A DNA stretch of 64,000 nt, taken from assembly GCF_003019035.1 (NCBI RefSeq), contig NZ_CP027447.1, one strand, 5' to 3'. The notes beneath the pieces were generated by a model, which was not told the DNA's origin, searched no databases, and saw only the letters and a program-made list of their open reading frames with translations. This DNA is from Escherichia coli. GTDB taxonomy: Bacteria; Pseudomonadota; Gammaproteobacteria; Enterobacterales; Enterobacteriaceae. Positions 2,870 through 40,467 of the stretch are shown piece after piece (the stretch's first letter is position 1; the number at the start of each line of letters is the position of its first letter). Made by a program: the position numbers and the translations under genes.

Positions 2870-2947
2870 TGCGTATCTGCGCACGTCGAAGATAAAAAAG
2901 GCGTGCTACAGTGACGAGAGAATCCCTTTATGGAGTATCCACGCGTT

Positions 2948-3934
2948 ATGATACGTTTCGCTGTGATTGGTACGAACTGGATCACTCGCCAGTTCGTCGA
3001 GGCCGCCCATGAGAGCGGTAAATACAAGTTAACTGCCGTTTATTCCCGCAGTCTTGAACAGGCCCAGCACTTCGCCAATGATTTTTCTGTCGAGCATCTG
3101 TTTACGTCGCTGGAAGCGATGGCAGAAAGCGATGCCATTGACGCGGTGTATATTGCCAGCCCGAATTCCCTGCACTTTTCCCAGACACAACTTTTCCTTA
3201 GTCACAAAATTCATGTGATTTGCGAGAAGCCACTGGCGTCGAATCTGGCGGAAGTGGATGCCGCCATTGCCTGTGCGCGGGAAAATCAGGTGGTGCTGTT
3301 TGAGGCATTTAAAACCGCCAGCCTGCCGAACTTTCATCTGTTGCGCCAGGCGCTGCCGAAAGTCGGCAAACTGCGTAAAGTCTTTTTTAACTATTGCCAG
3401 TATTCCTCGCGGTATCAACGTTACCTGGATGGTGAGAATCCCAACACCTTTAATCCGGCATTCTCTAACGGTTCAATTATGGATATCGGCTTTTACTGTC
3501 TGGCGTCAGCGGTGGCGTTATTTGGTGAGCCGAAAAGCGTGCAGGCAACCGCCAGTTTGTTGGCAAGCGGCGTAGATGCCCACGGCGTGGTGGTGATGGA
3601 TTACGGTGATTTCAGCGTTACGTTGCAGCACTCAAAAGTGAGCGATTCTGTCCTGGCAAGCGAGATTCAGGGCGAAGCGGGATCGCTGGTGATTGAAAAA
3701 CTGTCTGAATGCCAGAAAGTTTGCTTTGTTCCGCGTGGCAGCCAGATGCAGGATCTCACCCAACCGCAGCATATTAATACCATGCTCTACGAAGCAGAGC
3801 TGTTCGCTACCCTGGTGGATGAGCATCTGGTGGATCATCCAGGGCTGGCGGTCAGTCGCATCACCGCCAAACTGCTGACCGAGATCCGCCGCCAGACTAG
3901 GGTGATTTTTCCGGCAGATAGCGTAAAACTATAA
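2948..3934 (+). CDS. ygjR: Gfo/Idh/MocA-type NAD(P)-dependent oxidoreductase YgjR
   Basis: ORF 2930-3934; Rossmann N-terminus (IRFAVIGTNWI); start placed at MIRF (328 aa); start uncertain by 6 codons. Confidence 0.78.
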   Translation: MIRFAVIGTNWITRQFVEAAHESGKYKLTAVYSRSLEQAQHFANDFSVEHLFTSLEAMAESDAIDAVYIASPNSLHFSQTQLFLSHKIHVICEKPLASNLAEVDAAIACARENQVVLFEAFKTASLPNFHLLRQALPKVGKLRKVFFNYCQYSSRYQRYLDGENPNTFNPAFSNGSIMDIGFYCLASAVALFGEPKSVQATASLLASGVDAHGVVVMDYGDFSVTLQHSKVSDSVLASEIQGEAGSLVIEKLSECQKVCFVPRGSQMQDLTQPQHINTMLYEAELFATLVDEHLVDHPGLAVSRITAKLLTEIRRQTRVIFPADSVKL

Positions 3935-4007
3935 ATTGCCAAAGTAAAACAGTGTAAAAGGTATGTAACAGACCATTGACTGACTGAATGGTCTGTCATA
4001 CTTTGTT

Positions 4008-4217
4008 ACCTGCAAAGGGGAGTAACTTCATTGCCGGTCGATCGTCATTACGATGTGTGAAAAACCACATCCGGTCACCGGGCAACCCGAAAGGAATACG
4101 CAGACGTATTCCTTTTTTGTTGTAAGTGAGACCTTGCCGGAAGGCGAGGTCTATGCATAAAAAGCAGCGGCTGACGTCTTCCGACGTTGGCCGTTTTTTT
4201 ATGTGTAAGGAACTTCT
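4008..4217 (+). promoter_or_regulatory. alx 5' leader: structured RNA element (pH-responsive element / yybP-ykoY-type riboswitch) with an internal terminator-like hairpin plus U-tract at about 4168-4200
   Basis: About 210 nt untranslated leader before alx; hairpin cggctgacgtcttccgacgttggccg followed by ttttttt just upstream of the start codon; alx is known to carry such a leader. Confidence 0.55.
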
Positions 4218-5183
4218 ATGAATACTGTCGGCACGCCGTTGCTATGGGGCGGATTCGCTGTTGTTGTCACCATTATGCTGGCTATCGACCTGTTGTTGCA
4301 GGGGCGTCGTGGGGCACATGCCATGACCATGAAACAGGCTGCGGCCTGGTCGCTGGTCTGGGTGACGCTGTCGTTACTGTTTAACGCCGCTTTCTGGTGG
4401 TATCTGGTGCAAACCGAAGGTCGCGCCGTTGCCGATCCACAGGCACTGGCCTTCCTCACCGGTTATCTGATTGAGAAATCGCTGGCGGTCGATAACGTCT
4501 TTGTCTGGCTGATGTTGTTCAGCTATTTCTCTGTTCCGGCGGCATTACAACGTCGCGTGCTGGTGTATGGCGTGCTCGGGGCGATTGTTCTGCGTACCAT
4601 CATGATCTTCACTGGTAGCTGGCTGATTTCACAGTTCGACTGGATCTTGTATATCTTCGGTGCCTTCCTGCTGTTTACCGGCGTGAAGATGGCGCTCGCC
4701 CATGAAGATGAATCAGGCATTGGCGACAAGCCGCTGGTGCGCTGGCTACGCGGTCATTTACGCATGACCGACACCATCGACAACGAGCATTTCTTTGTGC
4801 GTAAGAATGGTTTGTTGTATGCCACGCCGCTGATGCTGGTGCTGATTCTGGTGGAGTTGAGCGACGTGATTTTCGCCGTGGATAGTATTCCGGCTATCTT
4901 CGCCGTGACCACCGATCCGTTTATTGTGCTGACCTCAAACCTGTTTGCGATCCTCGGCCTGCGTGCGATGTATTTCCTGCTGGCAGGTGTGGCAGAGCGT
5001 TTCTCGATGCTCAAATATGGTCTGGCGGTGATTCTGGTGTTTATCGGTATCAAGATGCTGATTGTCGACTTCTACCATATTCCGATCGCCGTCTCGCTGG
5101 GCGTGGTGTTTGGCATTCTGGTGATGACGTTTATTATCAACGCCTGGGTGAATTATCGGCATGATAAGCAGCGGGTTGGATGA
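4218..5183 (+). CDS. alx: TerC-family inner membrane protein Alx
   Basis: 321 aa multi-pass membrane ORF; recognised sequence; synteny. Confidence 0.88.
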
Positions 5184-5506
5184 TTTTTAATCTGCCCACG
5201 CCGTGTACCCTGTCATCAACATGAGCACCGTTTTCTCCCTCTCCCCAAAAGGGGCGAGGGGACTGACCGAGTACTTTTTTGACGTTGTCATCAGTCTGGA
5301 AGCTGCACGTTGGGCTTTATTTTTATGTCAAACAAATGTAACCATTAAGTTGCAAAATATGACCTCTCTTTAAAATCCAGCATTTTTCGCTTCCCGAAGC
5401 TGTAACTTTCCTTATACTCGACCTTGCAAACACTTTGTTACATCCTGAAAGATGCGTCGACAGAACGCACCAGGGATGTGCGACAACACAATGAAAGGAT
5501 CGAAAA

Positions 5507-6751
5507 ATGACTACGCAACGTTCACCGGGGCTATTCCGGCGTCTGGCTCATGGCAGCCTGGTAAAACAAATCCTGGTCGGCCTTGTTCTGGGGATTCTTC
5601 TGGCATGGATCTCAAAACCCGCGGCGGAAGCTGTTGGTCTGTTAGGTACTTTGTTCGTCGGCGCACTGAAAGCCGTTGCCCCCATCCTGGTGTTGATGCT
5701 GGTAATGGCATCTATTGCTAACCACCAGCACGGGCAGAAAACCAATATCCGCCCTATTTTGTTCCTCTATCTGCTGGGCACCTTCTCTGCTGCTCTGGCC
5801 GCAGTAATCTTCAGTTTTGCCTTCCCTTCTACCCTGCACTTGTCCAGTAGCGCGGGTGATATTTCGCCGCCGTCAGGCATTGTAGAAGTAATGCGCGGGC
5901 TGGTAATGAGCATGGTTTCCAACCCCATTGACGCGCTGCTGAAAGGTAACTATATCGGGATCCTGGTGTGGGCAATTGGCCTCGGTTTCGCACTGCGTCA
6001 CGGTAACGAGACCACCAAAAACCTGGTCAACGATATGTCGAATGCCGTCACCTTTATGGTGAAACTGGTCATTCGCTTCGCACCGATCGGTATTTTTGGT
6101 CTGGTTTCTTCTACCCTGGCAACCACCGGTTTCTCCACACTGTGGGGCTACGCGCAACTGCTGGTCGTGCTGGTTGGCTGTATGCTGCTGGTGGCGCTGG
6201 TGGTTAACCCCTTGCTGGTGTGGTGGAAGATTCGTCGTAACCCGTTCCCGCTGGTGCTGCTGTGCCTGCGCGAAAGCGGCGTGTATGCCTTCTTCACCCG
6301 CAGCTCTGCAGCGAACATTCCGGTGAATATGGCGCTGTGTGAAAAGCTGAATCTGGATCGCGATACCTATTCCGTTTCTATTCCGCTGGGAGCCACCATC
6401 AATATGGCGGGCGCAGCAATCACCATTACCGTGTTGACGCTGGCTGCGGTTAATACGCTGGGTATTCCGGTGGATCTGCCCACAGCGCTGCTGTTGAGCG
6501 TAGTGGCTTCTCTGTGTGCCTGTGGCGCATCCGGCGTGGCGGGGGGGTCTCTGCTGCTGATCCCACTGGCCTGTAATATGTTCGGTATTTCGAACGATAT
6601 CGCCATGCAGGTGGTTGCCGTCGGCTTTATCATCGGCGTATTGCAGGACTCTTGCGAAACCGCGCTGAACTCTTCAACTGACGTGCTGTTCACTGCGGCA
6701 GCTTGCCAGGCGGAAGACGATCGTCTGGCAAATAGCGCCCTGCGTAACTAA
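5507..6751 (+). CDS. sstT: Na+/serine-threonine symporter SstT
   Basis: 414 aa polytopic membrane ORF; recognised as SstT. Confidence 0.9.

Positions 6752-40090: not shown

Positions 40091-40467
<377 letters not shown>

Follow-up and report, generated by a model that had tools for sequence, protein, structure and literature searches.

The alx leader of an Escherichia coli genome as a three-way-junction variant of the yybP-ykoY Mn2+ riboswitch

Positions 4011-4217 of the stretch of E. coli DNA analysed here (64,000 nt, referred to as the window) are, with a probability that we put at about 0.96, the 5' untranslated leader of alx and the published alx riboswitch, also called PRE or SraF. We hold with the same confidence that this leader combines a yybP-ykoY Mn2+ aptamer of variant, three-way-junction form (4012-4137) with an overlapping expression platform (4129-4217). 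Earlier work on the alx leader treats it both as PRE/SraF and as a Mn2+ riboswitch of the yybP-ykoY family (PMC9472077, PMC12153347, PMC12934788); it is already known and intensively studied, and we claim no discovery. We equate the leader with the published riboswitch because the window comes from E. coli, departs from the K-12 sequence at 2 of 286 nt, and carries a region found in 5419 of 5426 genomes. Covariation across Enterobacterales provides independent support for the helices of the OFF state (P5 and P6) and of the ON state (P5/P6), which had been proposed from chemical probing.

Position and identity of the alx leader

In the list of open reading frames for the window, a gap of 283 nt separates the ygjR stop at 3934 from the alx ATG at 4218. 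The protein encoded from 4218 matches the TerC family of Pfam (PF03741, E = 1.3e-53), and RefSeq names its product "Mn(2+) exporter Alx" or "TerC family membrane protein Alx"; a Mn2+-homeostasis or transporter gene of the kind expected downstream of a yybP-ykoY element is therefore in place. A match to positions 3935-4220 (286 nt) exists in 5419 of the 5426 complete E. coli genomes, in many of them at 100% identity, and the annotated feature that it covers is alx. K-12 MG1655 and Nissle 1917 both have the order ygjQ-ygjR-alx-sstT, and the RefSeq records of these two strains annotate no feature between ygjR and alx. Compared with K-12 MG1655, 284 of the 286 nt are identical. The two substitutions lie at 3983 (A here, G in K-12), in the promoter spacer, and at 4065 (C here, A in K-12), in the capping loop of P3.2, and neither touches a named functional residue.

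The features of the locus are as follows.

2930-3934: ygjR open reading frame (ORF list)
3976-4004, plus strand: probable alx promoter, with −35 TTGACT at 3976-3981, a 17-bp spacer and −10 TACTTT at 3999-4004 (reading of the sequence)
4011, plus strand: +1 in the numbering that the literature uses for alx/PRE (window position = 4010 + published number; 15 named residues fit only here)
4012-4028, plus strand: 5' half of the aptamer right leg, with the 5' strands of P1.1 (4012-4018), L1 (4019-4024) and P1.2 (4025-4028)
4029-4033, plus strand: L2 "capping loop", C19-G23, which stands in for helix P2 of canonical members and leaves a three-way junction
4034-4081, plus strand: P3.1/L3/P3.2 hairpin, PRE "hairpin A" (minimum free energy (MFE) fold, covariation, RNAalifold)
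4082-4123, plus strand: P4 hairpin (PRE "hairpin B"), at once an aptamer helix and an intrinsic terminator, with U-tract UUUUUU at 4113-4118 (terminator scan, folding, covariation)
4124-4137, plus strand: 3' half of the aptamer right leg, with the 3' strands of P1.2 (AAGU, 4124-4127), L1 (GAGA, 4128-4131) and P1.1 (CCUUGC, 4132-4137)
4129-4152, plus strand: P5, PRE "hairpin C", of the OFF conformer, AGACCUUGCC-GGAA-GGCGAGGUCU, which captures the P1.1/L1 3' strand (MFE fold)
4139-4182, plus strand: P5/P6, PRE "hairpin C/D", the alternative helix of the ON state, anti-terminator and anti-sequestrator
4152-4154, plus strand: RNA polymerase "pause 1" cluster, published as 142-144 (coordinates converted from PMC9472077)
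4187, 4193 and 4194, plus strand: further pauses, published as 177, 183 and 184 (coordinates converted from PMC9472077)
4166-4200, plus strand: P6 (PRE "hairpin D"), which serves as intrinsic terminator in the OFF conformer, its U-tract lying at 4194-4200 (terminator scan, folding, covariation)
4207-4220, plus strand: ribosome-binding region, with Shine-Dalgarno AAGGA at 4207-4211 and the alx AUG at 4218-4220 (MFE structure)
4218-5183, plus strand: coding sequence of the regulated gene, alx, for a TerC-family Mn2+ exporter of 321 aa (ORF list, Pfam, RefSeq)

The leader coincides with the published E. coli element in position and in every residue named in the literature. With +1 at 4011, the sequence fits A11, U35, A37 and A137 (PMC12153347), C36, C58, C73 and A74 (PMC9472077), and U17, U18, C19, A20, G23, A114 and A115 (PMC12934788), and the leader measures ~207 nt from +1 to the alx ATG. 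In the two nomenclatures, PRE hairpins A, B, S, C, D and C/D correspond to P3, P4, P1, P5, P6 and P5/P6, respectively. The initial annotation had let the leader begin at 4008, ~3 nt before the published +1, and correctly ended it before the ATG at 4218. Its assignment of the sequence to the alx leader and the yybP-ykoY Mn2+ family is borne out by the gene order, the 284 of 286 nt that agree with K-12, the L1/L3 core and the literature.

The same annotation had called this region a structured non-coding leader with a G-rich segment, a description upheld by the 283-nt gap, by the presence of aaggggagtaac at 4015-4026, and by the predicted stability of the fold. The sequence from 4011 to 4235 folds with −95.1 kcal/mol, compared with −62.2 ± 5.0 kcal/mol for dinucleotide shuffles (z = −6.63), and none of 200 shuffles folded as well. 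In a 600-nt region the terminator scan called two sites, where shuffles gave 0.7 ± 0.7. Hairpin D at 4166-4195 has 13 pairs, 7 of them G-C, with a UUCC loop and a T-run that extends to 4200, and hairpin B at 4089-4116 lies inside the aptamer and is followed by Ts to 4118. The initial annotation had noticed the element at 4166-4200 and missed the one at 4089-4118. In published numbering the two hairpin-plus-T-run elements span +156 to +190 and +79 to +108, so that the sequence holds both terminators of PRE (~+108 and ~+190), and the published termination sites coincide with the ends of both U-tracts. In vitro, 43-46% of complexes were found to terminate at site B (~108 nt) and 10-13% at site D (~190 nt) (PMC9472077). 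The ~190-nt product of site D, which ends near 4200, matches SraF in size.

Aptamer architecture and its relation to the yybP-ykoY family

A scan for the Alx protein in one genome per species found 80 loci across Enterobacterales, spanning Escherichia, Klebsiella, Enterobacter, Pantoea, Erwinia, Serratia and Yersinia, from which 72 non-redundant alx leaders were aligned. Three structures, based on how the E. coli leader folds and on the family architecture, were drawn up and their pairs counted on this alignment. Four segments proved invariant or nearly so, namely GCAAAGGGGAGTAACTT, CGTCA..ACG, GTAAGTGAGACCTTGCC and CGGCT...GCCGTTTT, with the sequence between them varying in length and composition; the invariant blocks across Enterobacterales amount to 17 and 18 nt. 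Helices P3, P4, P6 and the alternative P5/P6 helix are backed by compensatory substitutions. For the aptamer (P1.1, P1.2, P3.1, P3.2 and P4), 93.5% of the alignment cells can pair, compared with 31-42% in slid controls, and 26 pairs have changed on both sides, a number that none of 500 shuffles reached. The secondary structure is thus conserved in other alx leaders, as the initial annotation had implied that it should be. RNAalifold, run without a supplied structure, recovered P3.1, P3.2, the base of P4, P5 and P6, with 15 covarying pairs.

The aptamer's right leg is nearly constant in sequence. The 5' strand of L1 reads GGAGUA, with A11 at 4021, and the 5' strand of P1.2 reads ACUU; in GCAAAGGGGAGTAACTT, which covers this half of the leg, the sole varying base is the A at window position 4014, in 1 of the 72 leaders. 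This 5' half aligns with the L1 region of the E. coli mntP riboswitch and with the RF00080 consensus UGGGGAGUAGC. The L1 internal loop that characterises the yybP-ykoY family is present, formed by GGGGAGTA at 4017-4024 and GAGACC at 4128-4133 between P1.1 and P1.2, and both of its strands are invariant in the 72 orthologues and align with the corresponding mntP strands and the RF00080 consensus. On the 3' side, GTAAGTGAGACCTTGCC is identical in 72 of 72 leaders. P1.1 and P1.2 can pair in 99.8% and 100% of cells, respectively, but neither helix varies and covariation is uninformative for both. The 3' strand of P1.1 (4132-4137) is that of a switch helix, with either 4012-4018 (as P1.1) or P5 (4129-4152) as alternative partners, so that it is common to the aptamer and to a mutually exclusive structure of the platform.

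The gap from P1.2 to P3.1 measures only 5 nt (4029-4033), too few for a P2 hairpin, and the junction is three-way, rather than the canonical four-way junction of P1, P2, P3 and P4. The L2 loop that occupies this gap has been seen in the structure PDB 9JGM, and a role for it in pH sensing has been proposed (PMC12934788). Its first residue, C19, is replaced by G or U in 13 of the 72 orthologues, with Pantoea and Pluralibacter among the genera that carry such variants. In the P3 leg, the one-sided 7-nt loop L3 (UCAUUAC, 4045-4051) lies between two covarying helices: P3.1, where 6 of 10 pairs have changed on both sides and 98.9% of cells pair, and P3.2, where 5 of 6 pairs have done so and 91.7% of cells pair. 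This is the internal loop with a conserved adenosine expected in the P3 leg of a yybP-ykoY aptamer, it resembles GUCAACAUAC of mntP, and CGTCA..ACG in this region shows no variation in the 72 leaders. The adenosine A37 (4047) of L3 coordinates Mn2+ (PMC12153347, PMC12934788). P4 alone folds with −19.4 kcal/mol, and its base covaries (AAC/GUU, GUC/GAC and AUC/GGU among the 72 leaders), with the distal part variable in length and sequence. Several species have insertions resembling repetitive extragenic (REP) elements within P4 or in the stretch from P6 to the ribosome-binding site.

The closest point of reference is the leader of mntP, the canonical four-way-junction member in E. coli (RF00080, "Manganese"). 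The two leaders have in common the L1 core of GGGGAGUA on the 5' side and GAGACC on the 3' side, an L3 with a CAU..AC motif and a conserved adenosine, and a P1.1 switch helix whose 3' strand also serves the expression platform. Both also bind Mn2+ and exert translational ON control over a Mn2+ exporter (PMC12153347). Unlike mntP, alx lacks P2 and has a three-way junction with the 5-nt L2 loop, its L3 reads UCAUUAC where that of mntP reads ACAUAC, and its long P4 is itself a terminator, with a second one in the platform. These features agree with a published description of the alx aptamer, in which P2 is replaced by the short L2 loop, P4 is a terminator and L3 is divergent (PMC12153347). A strong response to alkaline pH is likewise found in alx and absent from mntP (PMC10197570, PMC12934788).

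The transcriptional yybP-ykoY riboswitches of Firmicutes offer a second comparison. In those of L. lactis and B. subtilis, a P1.1 helix stabilised by Mn2+ blocks a downstream intrinsic terminator. The P6 terminator of alx is likewise blocked in the bound state, by the P5/P6 helix, but it is reached through the intermediate hairpin P5, whereas the Firmicutes terminators compete directly with P1.1. A published description of the family also backs this comparison (PMC12153347). The output of alx differs as well in being mainly translational, its alkaline induction being ~68-fold in translational fusions and 1.5-fold in transcriptional ones (PMC10197570). Despite the three-way junction, alx has been counted as a family member on account of the common metal-binding core and the crystal structure 9JGM (PMC12934788). 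Taking the four-way junction as typical and not as defining, we regard alx as an atypical yybP-ykoY member.

A covariance-model search, which the initial annotation had named as a check, did not recover the element. Rfam 15 cmscan gave no match to RF00080 at E ≤ 1 over 3000-6000, nor at E ≤ 10 with lax filters over 3930-4260 (331 nt), and at gathering score only RNase P RNA and ES036 were matched in the whole 64-kb window; the alx leader thus falls outside the family as delimited by the 45-bit gathering threshold. However, the K-12 mntP leader, used as a control, scored 41.6 bits (E = 5.6e-10), itself under that threshold, and the alx leader of Kosakonia, which has a short P4, reached 13.1 bits (E = 0.081) with the match correctly placed. 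Because the control is sub-threshold and the Kosakonia leader is matched weakly in the right place, RF00080 is insensitive to the alx-type subclass, and the negative scan does not mean that the element is absent. The K-12 record, which is not annotated by PGAP, holds no riboswitch feature upstream of mntP. A negative Rfam or PGAP result accordingly does not rule out a riboswitch, and since both E. coli Mn2+ riboswitches score under the RF00080 gathering threshold and alx goes undetected, three-way-junction aptamers of the alx type are probably under-annotated across Enterobacterales. Other Rfam families gave weak matches (STnc370, STnc240, miRNAs and a snoRNA, at 12-20 bits against gathering scores of 35-72, E = 0.27-9.8); we discarded these as chance matches to the P4, P5 and P6 hairpins, with E-values expected for a search of 4227 families.

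We built a covariance model (R1) from the aptamer alignment of the alx leaders. R1 found a single site in the 64-kb window, at 4010-4138 with 119.7 bits, a result of which only the uniqueness is informative, the window sequence being in the training set. The model also recovered aptamers that insertions have shifted further upstream in five other species. Against the mntP leader it gave no match with default filters and 6.1 bits (E = 0.16) with filters off, which is too weak to serve as a test of homology; the alignment nevertheless sets GGGGAGUA and GAGACC of alx exactly on the L1 strands of mntP.

Alternative helices of the expression platform

Downstream of the aptamer, the leader can adopt two mutually exclusive arrangements. 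In the OFF arrangement P5 and P6 fold as separate hairpins (−17.7 and −19.2 kcal/mol alone, respectively). P5 can pair in 91.7% of cells across the 72 leaders and has an almost invariant 6-bp core with changes on one side only, the lack of compensatory changes being due to its 5' strand, which is fixed by the aptamer. P6 can pair in 95.6% of cells, with three compensatory pairs, and its CGGCT...GCCGTTTT segment is at least 90% conserved. In the ON arrangement, 4139-4146 and 4148-4151 pair with 4175-4182 and 4169-4172, respectively, leaving A137 (4147) bulged. This P5/P6 helix can pair in 96.8% of cells, compared with 37-65% in slid controls, and has three compensatory pairs; for example, GGAA/UUCC becomes GAAA/UUUC in 11 sequences and GAAU/AUUC in 2. 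The behaviour of A137 and the P5/P6 helix have both been described (PMC12153347).

The MFE structure, an OFF fold, also places the ribosome-binding region in a long-range interaction, in which 4212-4217 pair with the L1 5' strand (4018-4023) and 4207-4209 with 4026-4028. Pairing of the ribosome-binding site with a disrupted P1.1/L1 has been reported (PMC12153347). Among the orthologues this pairing is possible in only 70-75% of cells, shows no compensatory changes and lies where the alignment is poor. By nearest-neighbour folding the OFF fold is the more stable by ~15 kcal/mol, and enforcing the aptamer (P1.1 and P1.2) leaves the mean pairing probability of the Shine-Dalgarno sequence at 0.56 against 0.55 and frees only the AUG, but such folding is no stand-in for ligand-stabilised tertiary docking or co-transcriptional folding. 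Because the model misses both, we set these energies aside as evidence in either direction.

The terminators of the orthologues were assessed by simple counts of T-runs, because the scripted rule undercounts: it called P6 in only 28 of the 72 leaders although a hairpin and T-run are visible in all, since it demands perfect stems and the stems consume the T-tract. By this crude count, a T-run of at least four follows P4 in only 15 of 72 orthologues; Kosakonia, Klebsiella and Serratia are among those with a P4 that has no U-tract. The P6 hairpin and its U-tract are present in essentially all 72.

Proposed regulatory mechanism and the probable promoter region

These structures, together with published work, suggest how the leader would operate; for Mn2+ binding, pH dependence and termination we infer the steps from published experiments. 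When Mn2+ is absent, P5 would capture the 3' strand of P1.1/L1 and the terminator P6 would form, with some transcripts ending at ~+190; in the transcripts that read through, the freed 5' strand of L1 would mask the Shine-Dalgarno sequence and AUG and turn translation off. Mn2+ bound between L1 and L3, at A37 (4047), would dock the two legs and keep P1.1 closed. With P1.1 held, the 3' strand of P5 would pair with the 5' strand of P6, which would preclude P6, free the ribosome-binding site and allow Alx to be made. An alkaline cytoplasm would raise Mn2+ and sensitise the aptamer, partly through the L2 loop (4029-4033), to give the large alkaline induction, and the P4 terminator (~+108) within the aptamer would lower basal read-through.

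Several published results bear on these steps. Mn2+ induces alx translational fusions, and control is lost on deletion of PRE (PMC10197570). Probing has revealed Mn2+-dependent changes and the folding of P5, P6 and P5/P6, with P5 and P6 forming without Mn2+ and the P5/P6 helix forming when Mn2+ holds P1.1; Mn2+ binding is a prerequisite for the pH response (PMC12153347), which the A37U mutation abolishes (PMC12153347; summarised in PMC12934788). The three-way-junction crystal structure 9JGM, docking followed by smFRET, and mutants of L2 have been reported for the aptamer, and a C19·A114+ interaction has been hypothesised to sense pH (PMC12934788).

The P4 terminator (site B, ~+108) could be a lineage-restricted addition in Escherichia and a few relatives and not an integral part of the riboswitch, a suggestion that we make tentatively and rate slightly below even odds. 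If so, premature termination within the aptamer would be a recent evolutionary addition, one that either sets the level of basal read-through or yields an RNA of ~108 nt.

The original model of PRE explains the pH response without a metal: alkaline pH would lengthen RNA polymerase pausing at two sites and so give the active fold (hairpins S and C/D) time to form. This model, summarised in PMC9472077 and attributed there to Nechooshtan et al. 2009, draws on real elements, since the pause cluster at 142-144 is seen both in vitro and by NET-seq (PMC9472077) and the alternative helices that it invokes covary in the 72 leaders. However, pause lifetimes at the remapped sites were shortened or unchanged at pH 8.5 (PMC9472077), the A37U result ties the pH response to Mn2+ binding (summarised in PMC12934788), and a sensor working by pausing only would leave the invariant L1/L3 metal-binding core of 72 species unexplained. 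Pausing as the sole mechanism is largely refuted, and we consider a ligand-free sensor improbable. The initial annotation was right to call the leader pH-responsive, with the qualification that the response needs Mn2+ binding, and its statement that the leader acts by pausing reproduces the 2009 model.

Very unlikely, in our judgement, is the possibility that the locus primarily makes a trans-acting small RNA, SraF of ~190 or ~108 nt, with an incidental link to alx. A small RNA of that name was found here in a screen (PMC9472077), the leader contains two efficient-looking intrinsic terminators, and orthologous leaders have kept P6 with its U-tract almost without exception. Yet the element always lies immediately upstream of alx in more than 70 species, its 3' part holds the alx ribosome-binding site and covarying anti-terminator pairings, and alx is deregulated in cis when PRE is deleted (PMC10197570). 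In vitro, termination at site D involves only 10-13% of complexes (PMC9472077), and the cited literature on the alx leader reports no trans target of SraF. The absence of an Rfam family match and of RefSeq annotation between ygjR and alx might also be read to mean that there is no riboswitch, and that the structures are the ygjR terminator region plus hairpins arising by chance. The z of −6.6, the invariant blocks of 17 and 18 nt, and the extensive compensatory covariation contradict this reading, as does the large experimental literature on the leader; a separate covarying hairpin at 3954-4009 is a better fit for a ygjR terminator. Conservation and covariation have already refuted the chance-hairpin explanation, which retains a negligible probability next to that of a Mn2+ riboswitch controlling alx.

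Upstream of +1, the segment 3976-4004 is a probable alx promoter, predicted from its sequence; an extended −10 (TGtCATACT, 3994-4002) is an alternative to the −10 listed above. TTGAC and a cat-a-t/c-tttgtt block keep a constant spacing to the aptamer in most of the 72 orthologous leaders. A consensus promoter scan made no call at 3976-4004, because the −10 matches the consensus at only 3 of 6 positions. We do not regard the 45-aa open reading frame at 3988-4125 as a leader peptide, since its ATG precedes the inferred +1 (4011) and the invariant RNA motifs that it overlaps are conserved in a pattern that appears structural.

Between the end of ygjR and +1, the sequence can fold into a long hairpin (3954-4009, −23 kcal/mol, z = −3.98), whose upper stem, ACAGACCATT-N9-AATGGTCTGT at 3968-3996, brackets the alx −35. 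Its arms show compensatory changes across genera, including wobble (G·U) pairs that are valid on the plus strand only. Because of these compensatory arms and strand-specific G·U-type pairs, we favour an RNA hairpin over a transcription-factor operator as the explanation for the inverted repeat around the −35. The hairpin may be a ygjR terminator that overlaps the alx promoter, with the −35 in its loop and the −10 in its U-tract, in which case ygjR read-through and alx initiation could be coupled.

Terminators, insertions and aptamer integrity in orthologous alx leaders

The terminator within aptamer helix P4 (site B; 4089-4118) is not a general feature of orthologous alx leaders. By a crude criterion, a run of at least four T residues follows P4 in only 15 of the 72 leaders (drawn from loci L004-L083); these are mostly from Escherichia, with some from Citrobacter, Pseudocitrobacter, Lelliottia, and Raoultella. 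P4 itself is very short in many species. Unlike site B, the platform terminator P6 is near-universal among these leaders, again from a crude count.

Two leaders seem to be without an intact aptamer. Scored with R1, a covariance model built from the alx aptamers of these orthologues, the Rouxiella aceris (L078) and Atlantibacter sp. RC6 (L026) loci reach 8.5 and 20.9 bits, respectively, over the 300 nt lying 5′ of alx. The R. aceris leader keeps a P6-like terminator, GGCTAATGTCTTTTGACGTTAGCCGTTTTTTT, and Rouxiella may have lost the riboswitch and retained the attenuator.

The alx leaders of several species contain extra segments of 60-170 nt, insertions that by eye look like repetitive extragenic (REP/ERIC-like) elements. 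The aptamer is still detected by R1 in the insertion-bearing leaders, at 59-101 bits.

Insertions in orthologous alx leaders (coordinates on the locus)
L006 (E. albertii), ~1221-1345: insertion that duplicates hairpin B
L015 (Siccibacter) and L035 (E. pulveris): insertions within P4
L025 (Phytobacter) and L047 (Erwinia persicina): insertions between P6 and the RBS
L025 (Phytobacter): additional 60-nt insert in the loop of aptamer helix P3.2

Natural variation at C19

A 2026 preprint proposed that aptamer residue C19 forms a pH-sensitive C19·A114+ wobble. At this position (window 4029; column 20 of A1, the alignment of the 72 leaders), G is found in 11 of 72 orthologues and U in two, the variants belonging to Pantoea and Pluralibacter-like groups, while A114 is invariant in all 72. 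Natural orthologues with G or U at C19 could serve to test the pH-sensing hypothesis.

The hairpin between ygjR and alx

A long hairpin at 3954-4009 (-23 kcal/mol, z = -3.98) separates the ygjR stop codon from the alx +1 site.

Upper stem of the hairpin
3968-3977 / 3987-3996: perfect 10-bp stem enclosing the predicted alx -35 hexamer

The T-rich predicted -10 region of alx forms the 3′ flank of the hairpin. Between genera, the arms of the 3968-3996 stem show compensatory changes (GACC/GGTC, GGCC/GGCC, GGAC/GTCC, GGGC/GCCC, and GAAC/GTTC), and the G·U-type pairs seen in this comparison are valid on the + strand only. At least eight of the ten upper-stem pairs are retained in about half of the leaders (30/63). 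The hairpin is probably the intrinsic terminator of ygjR, overlapping the alx promoter.

Riboswitch annotation and occurrence in E. coli

At gathering score, Rfam 15 misses both E. coli Mn2+ riboswitches: the K-12 mntP leader (L003, 962-1058), at 41.6 bits, falls short of the 45-bit threshold, and the alx aptamer (4010-4138) has no match. The RefSeq records examined carry no annotation for either riboswitch. Therefore, three-way-junction aptamers of the alx type are probably under-annotated. Across the whole window, Rfam gave no matches at gathering score beyond two other RNAs.

Rfam matches in the window
40091-40467, - strand: RNase P RNA class A, 318.6 bits
21971-22011, + strand: ES036/CssrF sRNA, 38.4 bits, just over the 37.6 threshold

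Among the E. coli genomes searched, 7 of 5426 have no match to the alx leader; one of the 5420 matches in this collection lies on a plasmid and not on the chromosome.
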